From Chitinophagaceae bacterium (lineage in GTDB: Bacteria; Bacteroidota; Bacteroidia; Chitinophagales; Chitinophagaceae), in assembly GCA_020437365.1 (NCBI GenBank), contig JAGQWM010000004.1, positions 3,568 to 67,567 on the forward strand: DNA of 64,000 bases. Reading direction: 5' to 3'. Positions 621 to 11,361 of the stretch are shown one piece after another. The notes under the pieces were generated by a model. It worked only from the letters and a program-made list of their open reading frames with translations. It did no database searches and had not been told where the DNA came from. Position 1 is the first letter of the stretch, and every line of letters starts with the position of its first letter. The position numbers and the translations under genes are program-made.

Positions 621-3600
621 ATGAAGCAATTCAGTAAATTTTGCCTGTTGATTTTTTCAATAGGTTTTTTCAATTCATCAATTGTGCAGGCACAAAAATC
701 TTCTGCCAAAAAATATATACAGGAAGATTTTCACCTCAACGAAGGAACACTATCTGTGTTCTTACCTTCAGATCTTCGTGCCGGAGATGTTATTTCCGGA
801 ACCGTAGTTGTATGGCCCGACGGGAATAATGAAAAACAAAAAAACAGAAATGCCAAGTCATTAAAAAAATATTCCTTAGCCGTTGGTGGTATTCCAATTC
901 AGTTTGAAAAATCTTCTACCAACAATATTCATTTTTCCGGAAAATTAACAAAATTGAATATGCAGGTTGAGAACGAAAAAATCGGTTCCTTTTCTTCAAA
1001 AGCAATTCCGGCATTGCCAATTCCTCAACAACCTGTAGGCTTTGGTATGCCCACACATGCTTTGACTGATGCACCATTCAGCATTTCCGGGGCTTTCGAT
1101 GGCGAAGCGGCGAATACTGTTTGCCGTCTCGATGGAAAAACAATTGAAGTATTGGCCGAATCACCGCGACAAACAATTTGCCAGATGCCGGCAGCTACCA
1201 GCGGTGCACATGAATTGTCGGTAGAAGAAAACGGGCAATCAACAACCAAAAATATTGCCGCCGTGAATATGAATCTCAGTACCGGCAAATTGAATTTACA
1301 AAAAGGTGAAAGCACATTTGTGAATGTAGCGATTTCGGGTTTGCAAAATTTACCCGGCGATGCTACACTAACGGTAACCAATACCTCCACCGGAACGGTA
1401 ACCATGCAAGGAGGCAATGCACAAATAATTCCTATCACGCCGGCGGCCGCGGAATCAACCGGTAATTTTTCGCGACGCTTCAACCTGCAAAGTATTAAAA
1501 CAGGAAGTTTTACTGTAAGTGTTGATCTCGATCTTCCTGCTTCAGACAATACATCTCATATCGGTACCGCTTCAGCCGCTTTGTGCAATTGTTATATCAA
1601 CGAGCATAGTTATTTATTACCACCATCTATTTGTGCTTCACTCGGTGGAAGTGTAAACACTCCAGCAGAAAATACAAATACCACGGCTCCCATTGAATCG
1701 GTGAATCCGCCGGTCGTACAATTTTCTCAGCCGGAAGAAATAAATGCCGAAACAGGTCCCGTGAATTTACAATTGTTGGCTCCTGACAATGATATAGCTG
1801 CAGTTATTTTTTCGGACCGGCATGTTGCCGATAAAGACTGGACACCTATTGGTACAGCTACGCAAGATGGTAACAATTGGCGTTATGATTGGTTGGCTCC
1901 GGTAGGCAATGATGGAGAACATATTGTAAGAGCCAGAATTGTCAGTAAGAATAATGTAGTAACAGAAAGATTTATTAATAAAAATATTCAACTCAATCCA
2001 TCTTCTATCAATCCCTTGCCCGGTGAAAATATTGCATTGACCATTACCAGTAGTCAAATACGAGATGCCGATTGGAAAGTAAAAGGATTGGCCGAGAAAC
2101 TACGTCAATTACAGGAAAAACTGGATAAGCTGCAAAAAGAATATAATGACCTGAAAAACCAGCAAGCAGAAAATACAAATATGGCCAACGAGTTGGAGGA
2201 AATTGATAAAGTCATTGAAAAAATTCCGGGTTTGTATAAAGACTCTTTACAAAAACTAACCGATTCGTTAAATAATCTCAAGAAAAAGCTACCCAAAAAA
2301 GTAGATACAGATGCCTTGCAAAAAGCGGCTAATGATGCAGCACAAAGAGCAAAAGATTGTAAAGACAGGTTGGATAAACTGAAACAAGACAGGGATAAAG
2401 CCAAAAAAGATTTAGACGACCTCAATAAAAAAATTGAAGACTTACTGAACCAAATGGATCAATTGCACTTGGGAAATAATTGGGTAGGCGGACATGGTTA
2501 TCATGCCGATGGAGGATTCTGGTATGGCTATGTGGGCGATGAGCGGTCCAATACAAATATTTCGCCGCAGGCAAATAATCTCGCCAACCAACTCAGGGCA
2601 TTGAAGCGGCCACAAAACGAAGCCAATAACAGGTTGAACAATCTCAATAATGATATTAAAAACGCTGAAAATGATTGTGATAAACTGCAAAAAGAAAAAG
2701 AAAAAGCAGATGAAGCTTTAAAAAACGGGAAACAACATGATGCCGTTGAAACACAAATCAATGAACTGGACAGGCAGATAAAAGATTTGATGTCGTCATT
2801 AGAAAAATGGTGCGCTGCACATCCCGGCGTTTGCAATTTCGATCCTGCACTACCGGAAAGCCCTACTTCACCCCAAGCATTGCAGGCTTATCTTAATAAA
2901 CTCAATGAAATAATCGAAAAGAAAAAACAGAAAGAAAAAGATCTGAAAAATGATGCTGCACAAAATGCAACAGATGCTGCCGGAAAAAAAGACAATATAG
3001 ATAATGCAAATGGTGATAAAGAAAAACTGGAAGGTGATAAAGCCAAAGCACAGGAAGAAGCTGATAAATTGAAAGCGGCCAGAGAAAAACAATTGGAAGA
3101 AGAAAGAGAAAAACGCCGCAAAAAACAAGAAGAAGAAAAAATTAAAAGAAATGCGCCCAAGCCTGCGCCTACTTTGCCTGAACCCATCAACCCCAGTGAA
3201 AAACAAATTAAATACCAGGCCATTAGTTTATTCCGCGGTTTATACCGTGATTCATGGGTGAAAAACGGCCCTTGCCATTGTACAACAAAAGCATTGGCAC
3301 TATCCAATAATACCAACCAGGCTGCTACGCAACTTGTATTCAATATTGGGCTGGGTGTCATTTTTGCTCCGCTGGAAGCTTTTCCGGGATTATCGTTGGC
3401 TACCAAATTGGGCTTAGGTGCTGTCAAAGCATTGGGCAGTGCTTTATATGGCGGCGAAGATTTTACTAATGAACTGGCCAAAAATTTATTCAACGTCATC
3501 GGTGGTGAAATTTTTCCCAAGCTGACCGGAAGTGATATAGCCGGCAAGAATATTAACAAATTTGCCGGAAAAGGATTGGATGCCTTATTGAAAGACGAAG

Positions 3601-3922: not shown

Positions 3923-5758
3923 GTGCCAGATAAAGTAACCTTATTACCCGACAATATCGCCAACCAGATTGCAGCCGGAGAAGTCATACAGCGGCCTGCC
4001 AGTGCTGTCAAAGAGTTACTCGAAAATGCAGTAGATGCCGGAGCCACATATATACAATTAATTGTTGCCGATGCCGGTAAATCTTTAATTCGGGTGATTG
4101 ATAACGGCAGCGGCATGTCGGAAACTGATGCCAGGATGTGTTTCGAACGACACGCCACATCCAAGATAAAAGATATTGAAGACTTATTTCATATCCGCAC
4201 TATGGGCTTTCGTGGCGAAGCCTTGGCTTCCATTGCTGCCGTGGCGCAGGTAGAAATAAAAACCAAAAGAGAAGAAGACGAAACAGGTGTTTGTATTGAA
4301 ATAGAAAATAGTGTTGTAAAAAAACAAGAACCTGTAGCTACACCAACCGGCACCAACCTGGCCATGAAAAATTTATTTTTTAATGTGCCGGCCCGAAGAA
4401 ATTTTTTGAAAAGTAATGCAGCCGAAATGCGACATATCGTTGAGGAATTTACACGGGTAGCCATGGCATTTCCTGAAATACTTTTTACGCTGACACATAA
4501 TGATCAGCAGCTTTTTCATTTAGAACCGGGCAATTTAAAACAACGGATTATTCAATTGTTGGGCAATGCATACAAAACAAAATTAGTAGCGGTAAAAGAA
4601 GACACCGACTACATGAATATTTACGGTTTTGCAGGCAAGCCTGATGCGGCTAAAAAAACCCGGGGCGACCAGTATTTTTTTGTCAACAATCGTTATATCC
4701 GCAGTGCTTATCTGAACCATGCGGTGATGAATGCTTTTCAGGATACCATTCCCAAAGATGTTTTTCCGGCTTATGTTTTATTCATCGACCTCGACCCGAC
4801 TGTCGTTGATGTCAATGTGCATCCCACCAAACAGGAAATAAAATTTGAAGACGAAAAAATTATTTATGCATTTGTACAGGCTGCTGTAAAACATGCTTTG
4901 GCACAATTCAGCGTTACGCCCACTTTAGATTTCGACCTTGATGCTACGATTCAACAATTACCATCCGTATCGCAGCCTTTTACCGAAGAAAAAAAATCGG
5001 CAGCAGCTGCCAGTTCTATTTTTAAAGGATTTAGCCAAAAGCATCAGGCACATTTTATTGAGAAAACTGAAAATACTGACCCGAAAGCTATCGGATTGAA
5101 GCACTGGAAAAGTTTTTATGATGATTCGTATGCCGATAACCTGGCGTCAAATCCCGAAAAACCAATTCAACATTTACCTTTCGCTCATCGCTCTGCTGCT
5201 GATTGTAAACAATTGTTGAATACGTATATAACTGTTCCTTCAGCCGATGGGTTTCTACTCATTCACCAACAGGCGGCACATGAAAGAGTTTTGTATGAAA
5301 AATATTTAATGGCCAATAAAATCCATCCTATTGCTTCGCAAAAAACGATGTTTCCCACGACAGTGGAATTGCCTCCGGCCGATGCAGCCATCATGCAGGA
5401 AATAACCGACGACCTTCATTTATTGGGATTCATCATTGAGCCATTTGGCAGAAATGCATTTGTGGTTCAAGGCTCACCAGCCGATGTAGCACAAGGCAGT
5501 GAAAAACAAACGATAGAAGATTTATTGGAACAATATAAAAATTTCAGTAGCGAAGTAAAATTTTCATCTCGTGAAAAAATTATCCGTAGCCTGGCCAAAC
5601 AACAAGCCATTAAACCGGGGACTTCGCTTTCTGTTACTGAAATGCATCAATTGATTGCTGATTTATTCGATTGTGAAATGCCTAACAGCACTGCCGATGG
5701 CCAACCCACTTATTTATCTTTTAGCAAAGAACAACTGGAAAGGATGTTTGGTAAATAA
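3923..5758 (+). CDS. mutL: DNA mismatch repair endonuclease MutL
   Basis: IAAGEVIQRPASAVKELLENAVDAGA, DNGSGM, RHATSKI, GFRGEALASI, DVNVHPTKQE, HQQAAHERVLYE. Likely GTG start at 3923 (ORF track starts 3872). Confidence 0.97.
   Translation: MPDKVTLLPDNIANQIAAGEVIQRPASAVKELLENAVDAGATYIQLIVADAGKSLIRVIDNGSGMSETDARMCFERHATSKIKDIEDLFHIRTMGFRGEALASIAAVAQVEIKTKREEDETGVCIEIENSVVKKQEPVATPTGTNLAMKNLFFNVPARRNFLKSNAAEMRHIVEEFTRVAMAFPEILFTLTHNDQQLFHLEPGNLKQRIIQLLGNAYKTKLVAVKEDTDYMNIYGFAGKPDAAKKTRGDQYFFVNNRYIRSAYLNHAVMNAFQDTIPKDVFPAYVLFIDLDPTVVDVNVHPTKQEIKFEDEKIIYAFVQAAVKHALAQFSVTPTLDFDLDATIQQLPSVSQPFTEEKKSAAAASSIFKGFSQKHQAHFIEKTENTDPKAIGLKHWKSFYDDSYADNLASNPEKPIQHLPFAHRSAADCKQLLNTYITVPSADGFLLIHQQAAHERVLYEKYLMANKIHPIASQKTMFPTTVELPPADAAIMQEITDDLHLLGFIIEPFGRNAFVVQGSPADVAQGSEKQTIEDLLEQYKNFSSEVKFSSREKIIRSLAKQQAIKPGTSLSVTEMHQLIADLFDCEMPNSTADGQPTYLSFSKEQLERMFGK
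5080..5094. repeat. 15-nt near-perfect palindrome apparently inserted in-frame in the mutL linker
   Basis: CCCGAAAGCTATCGG; its core CCGAAAGCTATCGG is one mismatch from the perfect palindrome CCGATAGCTATCGG. Removing it converts T-D-P-K-A-I-G-L-K-H-W to T-E-L-K-H-W. Confidence 0.7.
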
Positions 5759-10299: not shown

Positions 10300-11361
10300 A
10301 TGAAAACATTACAGGAAAAAATCGAAGCATACAAAAAGGAAATTTCGGCATTTACCGCCGCTGATGAAAATGAAATTGAATCATTTCGTATCAAATATCT
10401 CGGCTCCAAAGGTTTGGTAAAATCCATTATGAGCGAAATGAAAAATGTATCACCGGACAATAAAAAAGAAGCCGGTTTGCTGCTCAATGAATTCAAAACC
10501 TTTGTAGAAGAAAAATTTGCGTCATTAAAATCGGCAACTGCTACGGTTGATACTACCGGTGATGGCAAATCTTCTTCGATAGATTTTAGTTTACCCGGCG
10601 ACCCCATGCCGGTAGGGGCCCGCCACCCTGTCGTATTGATGCGCAATAGGATTGTTTCTATTTTCCAACGGTTAGGATTCGCAGTAGCAGAAGGACCGGA
10701 GATTGAAGACGATTGGCACAATTTCGGCGCCTTGAATTTACCCGAACACCATCCGGCCCGCGACATGCAGGATACTTTTTATATTCAACAAAATCCTGAT
10801 TGGGTTTTGCGTACACACACAAGCAATGTGCAAATCCGGGAAATGGAAAAAGCCAGCCTACCGGACAGACAGGGAAAACTGCCTATTCGCATGATTATGC
10901 CGGGCAGGGTGTATAGAAATGAAACTGTGAGTGCAAGAAGCCATTGTTTTTTTCACCAGATAGAAGGGTTGTATGTAGATGAAAATGTTTCTTTCGCCGA
11001 CCTCAAACAAACTTTGTATTTTTTTGTAAAAGAAATGTATGGCCAAGATGTAAAAGTTCGCTTCAGGCCTTCATATTTTCCTTTTACCGAACCCAGTGCC
11101 GAAATGGATGTCAGTTGTTTTATCTGTGGCGGTAGTGGTTGTAATATTTGCAAAAAAACAGGATGGGTAGAAATCCTGGGCTGTGGTATGGTGCATCCGA
11201 ATGTTCTTAGCAATTGCAAGATAGACCCCAATAAATACACAGGATTTGCGTTTGGCATGGGCATTGAACGACCTGCCATGTTGAAATACGGCATCAATGA
11301 TATTCGGTTGTTCAGTGAAAATGATATTCGATTTTTACAACAGTTTACCGCTGCGATATAA
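10300..11361 (+). CDS. pheS: Phenylalanine--tRNA ligase alpha subunit
   Basis: HPARDMQDTFY, LRTHTSNVQIR, PGRVYRNE, FHQIEGL, RFRPSYFPFTEPSAEMD, WVEILGCGMVHPNV, GFAFGMGIER. Confidence 0.98.
   Translation: MKTLQEKIEAYKKEISAFTAADENEIESFRIKYLGSKGLVKSIMSEMKNVSPDNKKEAGLLLNEFKTFVEEKFASLKSATATVDTTGDGKSSSIDFSLPGDPMPVGARHPVVLMRNRIVSIFQRLGFAVAEGPEIEDDWHNFGALNLPEHHPARDMQDTFYIQQNPDWVLRTHTSNVQIREMEKASLPDRQGKLPIRMIMPGRVYRNETVSARSHCFFHQIEGLYVDENVSFADLKQTLYFFVKEMYGQDVKVRFRPSYFPFTEPSAEMDVSCFICGGSGCNICKKTGWVEILGCGMVHPNVLSNCKIDPNKYTGFAFGMGIERPAMLKYGINDIRLFSENDIRFLQQFTAAI
10853..10873. repeat. 21-nt degenerate palindrome apparently inserted in-frame in pheS
   Basis: CCAGCCTACCGGACAGACAGG. Removing it converts EMEK-ASLPDRQ-GKLPIR to EMEKGKLPIR; 5 of 8 stem pairs remain. 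Confidence 0.75.

Follow-up and report, generated by a model that had tools for sequence, protein, structure and literature searches.

A decayed copy of a tiny palindromic repeat lies in frame in pheS of a Chitinophagaceae bacterium

We analyzed a 64,000-nucleotide (nt) stretch of DNA from a Chitinophagaceae bacterium (hereafter the window; positions 3,568 to 67,567 of the forward strand of contig JAGQWM010000004.1, assembly GCA_020437365.1), in which pheS, the gene for the alpha subunit of phenylalanyl-tRNA synthetase (PheRS), contains 21 nt, CCAGCCTACCGGACAGACAGG (10853-10873, plus strand), that its orthologues lack. These 21 bases are very probably a solo, now inert copy of a tiny GC-rich palindromic repeat that entered the gene by precise insertion and persists as a tolerated passenger. 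The pheS copy is a decayed, inactive member of a palindromic repeat family, and its precise insertion arose in the lineage of one species. In-frame palindromic insertion is a known kind of event; the repeat family is apparently undescribed, and full-text literature searches with its 20-nt form, its core and its peptides found no description of it. The pheS locus is an ordinary consequence of this unusual repeat family.

The product of the pheS open reading frame (ORF) contains the Pfam domains PF02912 (Phe_tRNA-synt_N) and PF01409 (tRNA-synt_2d) and matches the solved Pseudomonas PheS (PDB 4p71) with E = 1e-105. A search of the window gave a single match to the 21-nt sequence, and 100 shuffles gave none. 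An earlier note, made from the sequence alone, had described it as a palindrome adding seven codons in frame, and the sequence, the ORF and the gap in the orthologues all agree with that description. In the DNA, the added residues, ASLPDRQ, are flanked by ...RTHTSNVQIREMEK and GKLPIRMIMPGRVYR, and excision restores EMEK-GKLPIR; the register of the 21-nt element differs by one base from that of the added codons. Relative to the canonical and commonest 21-nt form of the family, CCTGCCTGCCGGACAGGCAGG (CCTGCCTG-CCGGA-CAGGCAGG), the pheS copy carries the changes T3A, G8A and G17A. Our recount gave the same five of eight remaining stem pairs as the note. The RNA fold of the pheS copy (-0.4 kcal/mol) is not better than that of shuffles, whereas the canonical form folds with -13.8 kcal/mol, and the stable hairpin typical of the family is accordingly absent here. 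When the canonical form is read as CC TGC CTG CCG GAC AGG CAG G, one change converts TGC to AGC (Cys to Ser), and the other two are synonymous (CTG to CTA, Leu; AGG to AGA, Arg). The three substitutions together thus abolished the hairpin and altered only one residue.

The status of the segment as an insertion was examined in an alignment of 28 PheS orthologues, from 23 species of the same genus, an uncultured one of the Chitinophagaceae, and five other families of the order. At the protein level, all 28 read EMEK-G(K/N/T..)LPIR or an equivalent, with a seven-residue gap opposite the insert; at the DNA level, the gap measures exactly 21 nt, between ...GAAAAAG and G(N)AAA..., and no further indel lies nearby. 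We then considered 80 further loci from species-representative genomes (Chitinophagaceae, Chitinophaga, Ferruginibacter, Sediminibacterium, Mucilaginibacter, Pedobacter and others), and the short spacing was present in 54 of the 54 that were readable by pattern (PheS of Chitinophagaceae and Sphingobacteriales). The insert is missing from 82 orthologues in total, and HMMER alignment to the solved PheS proteins 4p71 (Pseudomonas) and 3pco (Escherichia coli) produced the same seven-residue gap. Both the lineage-specific gap and the short EMEKGKLPIR spacing that the note had predicted were thus seen in every orthologue read.

The identical 353-residue protein is encoded on at least 24 contigs from independent assemblies, indicating that the pheS insert is no assembly artefact. 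Three of the contigs (two from NCBI assemblies and one from a Logan run assembly) were compared and proved base-for-base identical over 3-4 kb; they therefore represent one clone and are uninformative about polymorphism or age within the species. The note had called the insertion old. That it is an insertion is borne out, but its age is relative: the insert postdates the divergence of this species from all others sampled in the genus.

To place the insert in the protein, we used an AlphaFold2 model built with 50 orthologues (mean predicted local distance difference test score (pLDDT), 74), with secondary structure assigned by DSSP. According to this model, a helix (residues 177-186) is followed by a short turn and coil (187-195) and a strand (196-204), and the insert ends four residues ahead of the strand. 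Pro-195, Arg-197, Pro-201 and Gly-202 are invariant in the 50 orthologues. At the junction, the orthologues vary over four to five residues (EKGKL, ENQKP, QSTKP, ENTDP) between invariant flanking residues, and Staphylococcus PheS (2rhq) is two residues longer at the same site in the HMMER alignment, which shows that the length of the loop varies in nature. In the model and the PDB alignments, the insert extends a helix-to-strand loop of variable length and sequence that precedes class II motif 2, the location that the note had anticipated, and this loop is likely surface-exposed. Ending four residues before the motif-2 strand, the insert shows this loop of bacterial PheRS to be a place where insertions are safe. 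Taken by itself the locus is modest: one more tolerated seven-residue insert in an essential enzyme.

Two complementary 8-nt arms, CCTGCCTG and CAGGCAGG, define the repeat family; between them lies CCGG, with or without one additional nucleotide. As a control we used the same pattern read backwards, which gave no match in any of more than 450 genomes. The bacterium's own genome (2.63 Mb, 38% G+C) contains six perfect copies of CCTGCCTGCCGGCAGGCAGG and one CCAGCCTACCGGCAGGCAGG, with none for the reversed pattern, and 43 matches against none when four edits were allowed. Some 35 variants thus accompany the six perfect copies; matches with at least four arm mismatches were treated as noise. The repeat that the earlier note had named was therefore recovered by the genome-wide search it had suggested. 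It had also named two outcomes that would speak against an insertion, conservation of the seven residues across the family and a lack of other copies, and neither was seen in the orthologues or genomes searched. Within the genus, the 20-mer (with Y/R variants) was found in 40 of 61 genomes (291 copies, 0 to 33 per genome) and the 21-mer CCTGYCTG-N5-CAGRCAGG in 31 of 61 (about 119 copies; control, 0). The exact 20-mer was also present in 36 of 401 genomes and 32 of 179 genera across the phylum Bacteroidota, as well as in 35 stretches of IMG/VR viral contigs.

The altered arms of the pheS copy and its CCGGA loop are each found in other copies of the family. The CCAGCCTA arm, which may mark a separate subfamily or may have arisen by change after insertion, occurs at 16 sites in 13 genomes, 13 of these sites being 21-mers, and in both reading frames. 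The pooled flanks of 113 copies showed 57, 54 and 41% A at positions -1 to -3 and no conserved tetranucleotide. Direct repeats across the insert were fewer than expected in the same pool, so that target-site duplication does not accompany insertion; none is present at pheS. The pheS flanks (AAAAAG/GAAAAC) are A-rich, yet position -1 is G or C and not the preferred A. One apparent in-gene copy, on contig C111 (DACLAVRTQ), was rejected as a chance match within the native sequence of a protein with an adenylate-cyclase-type domain.

Copies of the family come in two lengths with different habitats. The 20-nt form has a 4-nt loop and occupies spacers, and the 21-nt form has a 5-nt loop. In the own genome, six of six 21-nt copies lie in long ORFs, against none of about 30 copies of 19-20 nt. 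The extra base of the 21-mer adjoins CCGG. The most frequent loop, CCGGA (or TCCGG when the opposite strand is read), is also that of the pheS copy. We fetched 70 sites of the 21-mer from outside the own genome and 20 sites of the 20-mer and asked whether each lay well inside an ORF of at least 150 residues; this was the case for 34 of the 21-mers and none of the 20-mers (Fisher p = 1.7e-5). About half of the 21-mers sit in spacers, suggesting that the length variant arises regardless of context. By its sequence, the parent of the pheS copy was the 21-nt, 5-nt-loop form rather than a 20-mer plus an accident. Both lengths may be produced everywhere, with selection probably removing frame-breaking 20-mers from genes, and the multiple-of-three length found in genes is better explained as a survivor effect than as the work of a system that writes palindromes of 3n length. 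The family is more useful than the single locus, since the genus amounts to a clean natural experiment in which selection can be seen sifting very small selfish DNA.

Host genes confirmed by Pfam encode UvrA, MutL, PurH, RsgA, ArgRS, CysRS, an ABC-F protein, E1 dehydrogenases, anthranilate synthase, ComEC, Omp85 and histidine kinases, among others. Some hosts recur across species. The rsgA genes at L142 (genome G060) and L286 (G043) carry a copy at the same position (DLP-LPAGQAG-FGGR), the E1 dehydrogenase genes at L290 (G013) and L295 (G048) carry copies at similar positions, and in the purH genes at L140 (G016) and L160 (G007) the positions differ. This recurrence hints at shared descent or preferred sites.

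The use of reading frames was compared between 34 in-gene and 36 spacer or edge 21-mers. The frame x-L-P-x-x-Q-A-G accounted for 29 copies in genes and 13 in spacers or edges, x-C-L-P-D-R-Q-x for 3 and 11, and P-A-C-R-... for 2 and 12 (chi-square p = 1e-9 for the in-gene counts). The two frames that are rare in genes are those that encode cysteine, which suggests that selection removes Cys-containing frames from genes. The pheS copy uses the rare x-C-L-P-D-R-Q frame with its Cys replaced by Ser. The same replacement recurs in undisputed copies (H-ASLPDRQG-K in G056 and A-ASLPDRQG-M in G071), and the copies of G076 and G072 read ASLSGRQA and TSLSGRQA, respectively. In the AlaRS copies, which use the third frame, the Cys codon has been lost as well, to Arg in the own genome and to Gln in G011. 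The "decay" of the pheS copy is thus at least partly patterned, hairpin and cysteine both having been lost. For annotation, these results mean that LPAGQAG, LPDRQAG and (C/S)LPDRQ peptides in Bacteroidota proteins are to be read as repeat scars and not as motifs.

The own genome holds six in-frame copies, in the genes for PheS, AlaRS, LysRS, MetRS, GlyRS and one hypothetical protein (Table 1), and in each case 13-16 orthologues from the genus lack the 21 nt. Synthetases make up about 1.6% of coding DNA by gene length and account for five of the six copies (p = 7e-9). In an unbiased sample of 40 host genes with young copies in relatives, two were synthetase genes, which is no excess (p = 0.14). 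The five-of-six pattern is therefore specific to this genome or to old copies. It could mean that old copies persist in long essential proteins whose loops tolerate them, that heavily transcribed DNA is preferred, or that tRNA biology is involved in some way. When these genes alone were inspected in relatives, two of the inserts proved to be shared: the AlaRS site with G011 only (L212), where the copies have diverged (PARPAGG vs. PVQPEAG), and the GlyRS site with G012 only (L259), where they are identical (LPAGEAG). The two distributions conflict, which implies that alleles were transferred, that sorting was incomplete or that one site was hit more than once. The PheS of G023 (L027) has independently acquired a family copy, CCTAACTGACCGGCAGGCAGG (LTDRQAG in translation), located in the linker that precedes the catalytic domain. 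The PheS of G013 (L021) is four residues longer (12 nt; HPPAGGI for QNP) owing to a shorter, different palindrome, and it was set aside as not being a family copy.

We next describe a nuclease gene found beside the repeat. Besides UvrC, the own genome encodes five small GIY-YIG proteins identified by Pfam, and four of the five genes adjoin tRNA genes. One of them belongs to a compact cassette on contig C95, which begins with the first 14 nt of tRNA-Leu(CAG), a perfect 20-mer, the next 10 nt of the tRNA and an 8-nt spacer, and ends with a 78-codon GIY-YIG ORF, a 6-nt spacer and the complete tRNA-Leu(CAG). Among 15 loci encoding GIY-YIG proteins at least 49% identical to the C95 protein, 12 have a perfect 20-mer 18-48 nt upstream of the start codon, and 14 have a tRNA-Leu or tRNA-Arg gene 3-53 nt beyond the GIY-YIG gene. 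At more distant small GIY-YIG genes, the 20-mer was present at 0 of 17 loci; most of these genes still lie at tRNA genes, of other types. In ten cassettes of the genus (C95, and L182-L193 in relatives), the palindrome splits a duplicated 5' piece of the following tRNA; the split falls within the D-loop when this tRNA is Leu-CAG or an Arg tRNA and within the anticodon loop when it is Leu-CAA. Solo copies also lie within fragments that resemble tRNA D-loops and T-loops. Each of the 13 genus genomes that encode a close nuclease homologue holds at least three 20-mer copies, as do 16 of the 48 genomes without one. The C95 protein scores 62.7 bits against Pfam GIY-YIG (PF01541); its nearest PDB entries are the UPF0213 proteins 1zg2 and 1ywl, weakly (E ~2e-3), and it matches no NCBIfam family above cut-off.

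On contig C77 (37385-37872), a different small GIY-YIG gene follows tRNA-Asp and precedes a second, broken tRNA-Asp copy. The anticodon region of the broken copy is replaced by a 20-nt palindrome of the same geometry, GTCTCTAC-GGCC-GTAGAGAC, that occurs once in the genome.

By analogy with the Ssn nucleases and their hairpin repeats, copying of the present repeat may proceed via a hairpin intermediate of single-stranded DNA, on which the linked GIY-YIG nuclease would act. A more far-reaching reading, which we hold only tentatively and consider less probable than its opposite, is that the palindrome is the mobile seed of an as yet undescribed type of nuclease-coupled mini-element, in which the 78-residue enzyme at tRNA genes would copy its own 20/21-nt hairpin, without target duplication, into single-stranded loops of heavily transcribed DNA. 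Its targets would be the D-loops, anticodon loops and T-loops of tRNAs and housekeeping genes such as those for aminoacyl-tRNA synthetases. If true, this reading would explain how one identical 20-mer comes to be shared across the phylum and phages, why five synthetase genes in one genome are hosts, and why the AlaRS and GlyRS sites are shared with different relatives. A nuclease that copies a hairpin would represent a new route of mobilization for REP-like DNA beside RAYTs and Ssn, and a possible source of compact sequence-specific single-strand nucleases.

Several observations weigh against the account given here, either as regards the pheS copy or as regards its origin. The CCAGCCTA arm is also found in a 20-nt spacer copy of the own genome (contig C152) and in G013, G055 and G076, so that two of the three "decay" changes may already have been part of the copy when it arrived. 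Residues 181-200 have a pLDDT of about 80 (79 for the block 181-190), which is moderate and not low, and the model does not mark the insert as floppy. Four genomes (G002, G060, G063 and G070), most of them fragmented metagenome-assembled genomes, hold 15-33 copies without a close nuclease homologue. The link between nuclease and repeat is strong in position and positional only, and it is not obligatory in the assemblies examined. Finally, no copying event was observed, all assemblies of the species being one clone.

An alternative is that the repeat is a REP/REPIN-type element moved by a RAYT, an IS200-like Y1/HUH transposase, and that the pheS copy is a stray insertion of it. The absence of target-site duplication around a hairpin repeat would fit, being a feature of the IS200/IS605 family and proposed for REPINs (PMC3116915), and the own genome does hold three or four Y1_Tnp genes. 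One of these has a variant copy with the CCAGCCTA arm 46 nt before its Pfam match, about 37 nt before the start codon, on C152. This is, however, the sole Y1 match of four that is preceded by a variant copy; the hairpins beside the other Y1 genes are unrelated, and an identical CCAGCCTA copy in G013 has no Y1 gene nearby. Neither a GTAG nor a CGTC tag was found at the repeat, whether in the pooled flanks of the 113 copies or at the cassette copies, which are flanked by tRNA sequence. Instead, it is the GIY-YIG gene to which the repeat is tightly and clade-specifically coupled (12/15 vs. 0/17 loci). A RAYT as the general partner of the repeat was rejected, as the gene neighborhoods do not support it, and we consider this origin unlikely.

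We also considered whether the seven residues might be a selected, functional addition to PheRS, for example one that makes a new contact with tRNA-Phe, the beta subunit or another partner, with their origin from a repeat being incidental. The substitution pattern has a bearing on this, since two of the three changes are synonymous and the third is conservative, so that the peptide was preserved as the DNA hairpin was lost, but three substitutions are too few to show purifying selection. Likewise, the insert is fixed in every assembly of the species, but these assemblies are all one clone. Five synthetase genes of the genome carry copies; about 40 unrelated enzymes, however, contain peptides of the same types, the two AlaRS copies that share a site diverged freely, and the 82 orthologues work without the insert. 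A selected function is thus very improbable, and the pheS segment is better regarded as a neutral, dead passenger that probably does nothing for PheRS. That the 21 nt arose locally, by slippage, duplication or repair, and resemble the repeat by chance can practically be dismissed: the copy agrees with the repeat at 17 of 20 positions and has one extra base, and its AAG/GAA flanks are not of the commonest type, but the neighboring sequence holds no source for the 21 nt, 2.6 Mb searched with the reversed pattern at equal stringency gave no match, each arm and the CCGGA loop exist as variants in the family, and ASLPDRQG is also encoded by undisputed copies elsewhere.

Small mobile DNAs with palindromes in genes are known from other bacteria. 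The small dispersed repeats of cyanobacteria are reportedly mobile repeats of about 20-30 nt with a palindromic core and no transposase of their own, and are said to lie in spacers, RNA genes and protein genes; they belong to another phylum and differ in sequence from the present repeat. We know of no nuclease partner and no division into 20- and 21-nt forms for them. The RPE-1 element of Rickettsiales measures roughly 100-150 bp. The present repeat measures 21 nt and its host belongs to the Chitinophagaceae. Rickettsia palindromic elements (Ogata et al., as cited by Di Nocera et al., PMC3733652) are palindromic repeats that lie in frame in essential genes, and they share with the present repeat the in-frame palindromic insertion with the protein retained (here PheS, AlaRS, LysRS, MetRS and GlyRS).

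REPs are short palindromes, extragenic for the most part, some of which lie in frame within known genes (intragenic REPs; Di Nocera et al. 2013, PMC3733652). Their hosts include uvrA and tRNA synthetase genes, the latter being among the frequent hosts of in-frame repeats, and the authors regard the inserts as tolerated and not functional (PMC3733652). UvrA, ArgRS and CysRS are hosts of the present repeat as well, and its geometry matches that of the CGTC families (stem of 8-9 bp, loop of 4-5 nt; PMC3733652, Table 1). Unlike intragenic REPs, the present repeat has neither a GTAG/CGTC tag nor a tail. It occurs as single 20/21-nt units, those in genes adding seven residues, whereas more than half of the intragenic REPs of PMC3733652 are dimers or groups that add 20-30 residues. 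It also differs in its two length forms divided between spacers and genes, in the identity of its 20-mer across the whole phylum and in viral contigs, and in its GIY-YIG partner gene, intragenic REPs having a RAYT or no partner. In a REPIN, two REPs form an inverted doublet, and REP singlets are considered immobile (Bertels & Rainey 2011, PMC3116915). Like the REPIN/RAYT system, the present repeat lacks target duplication and consists of miniature hairpin DNA that is not autonomous and would be moved in trans by a repeat-flanked single-copy enzyme gene; in the present repeat, however, singlets are the unit, and the partner is a GIY-YIG gene and not a Y1 transposase.

Ssn nucleases cleave single-stranded DNA next to hairpin repeats of their own (Chenal et al. 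2025, PMC11893778). Ssn with its NTS/SRM repeats (PMC11893778) resembles the present system in that a small single-domain GIY-YIG gene has a hairpin repeat beside it and in that many dispersed copies exist, in numbers that vary strongly between related species. The SRM is a sequence of about 30 nt with a (C)GTC tag, HGTCWY N0-2 YYVSBRH N0-5 WNVSBRG N0-2 RNCYNB (PMC11893778). The present repeat does not fit this motif, as no GTC-type tag was found at the 20-mer in the cassettes (GGCGAA-palindrome-ATTGG and GAATA-palindrome-GAGCA) or in the pooled flanks. In addition, Ssn is defined as CDD cd10448 (GIY-YIG_unchar_3), whereas the nearest PDB match of the present protein is, weakly, UPF0213; the present gene, unlike Ssn, is docked at tRNA genes inside a duplicated tRNA piece; and no link to transformation is known for the present repeat. 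The family is thus a variant set apart by the lack of a tag, its single units, its phylum-wide identity, its tRNA-docked GIY-YIG gene and its lack of fit to the SRM.

Table 1. Positions of the pheS insert, its surroundings, the other in-frame copies and the nuclease cassette (plain numbers, window positions; C numbers, contigs of the same genome)
Feature	Location	Strand	Remarks
pheS, phenylalanyl-tRNA synthetase alpha subunit, 353 residues, intact	10300..11361	+	ORF, Pfam, PDB match
Decayed 21-nt palindromic repeat copy	10853..10873	+	CCAGCCTA-CCGGA-CAGACAGG; exact 21-nt gap in 28 orthologues
Seven added codons	10852..10872	+	GCC AGC CTA CCG GAC AGA CAG = A185 S L P D R Q191
Codons of predicted helix 177-186 (VQIREMEK-AS)	10828..10857	+	after THTS active-site motif; insert starts in last turn; AlphaFold2/DSSP
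Codons of predicted strand 196-204 (IRMIMPGRV)	10885..10911	+	leads into class II motif 2 (GRVYRNE...FHQIEG); AlphaFold2/DSSP
Copy in alaS	C117:34647-34667		SFGD-PARPAGG-YFK
Copy in lysS	C102:6876-6896		EE-SLPAEQA-GK
Copy in metG	C74:19995-20015		KKDN-LPNGQAG-GGDQ
Copy in glyQS	C78:21971-21991	-	DLS-LPAGEAG-TEEK
Copy in gene for hypothetical protein	C114:3921-3941
Cassette	C95:32551-32914	-	tRNA-Leu(CAG) piece, 20-mer, GIY-YIG ORF, complete tRNA

Elsewhere in the window, a 15-nt palindrome, CCCGAAAGCTATCGG, lies in frame in mutL (5080-5094). With up to two mismatches it matched the own genome eight times, against seven for the reversed sequence, giving no sign of a repeat family at that stringency.

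A variant of the present repeat, CCTGTCTGCCGACAGGCAGG, forms loose arrays on four small contigs of the own genome (C41:281-545, C116:10599-13386, C143:1910-2437 and C148:4625-4742). It has a G-U wobble on one strand and a C-A mismatch on the other. The arrays have recurring flanks (...GTGGC and TTCGTGGC...) and lie in repeat-rich regions where the assembly breaks. On C116, the CCTGTCTGCCGACAGGCAGG copies surround an ORF of 464 residues with a GIY-YIG domain.

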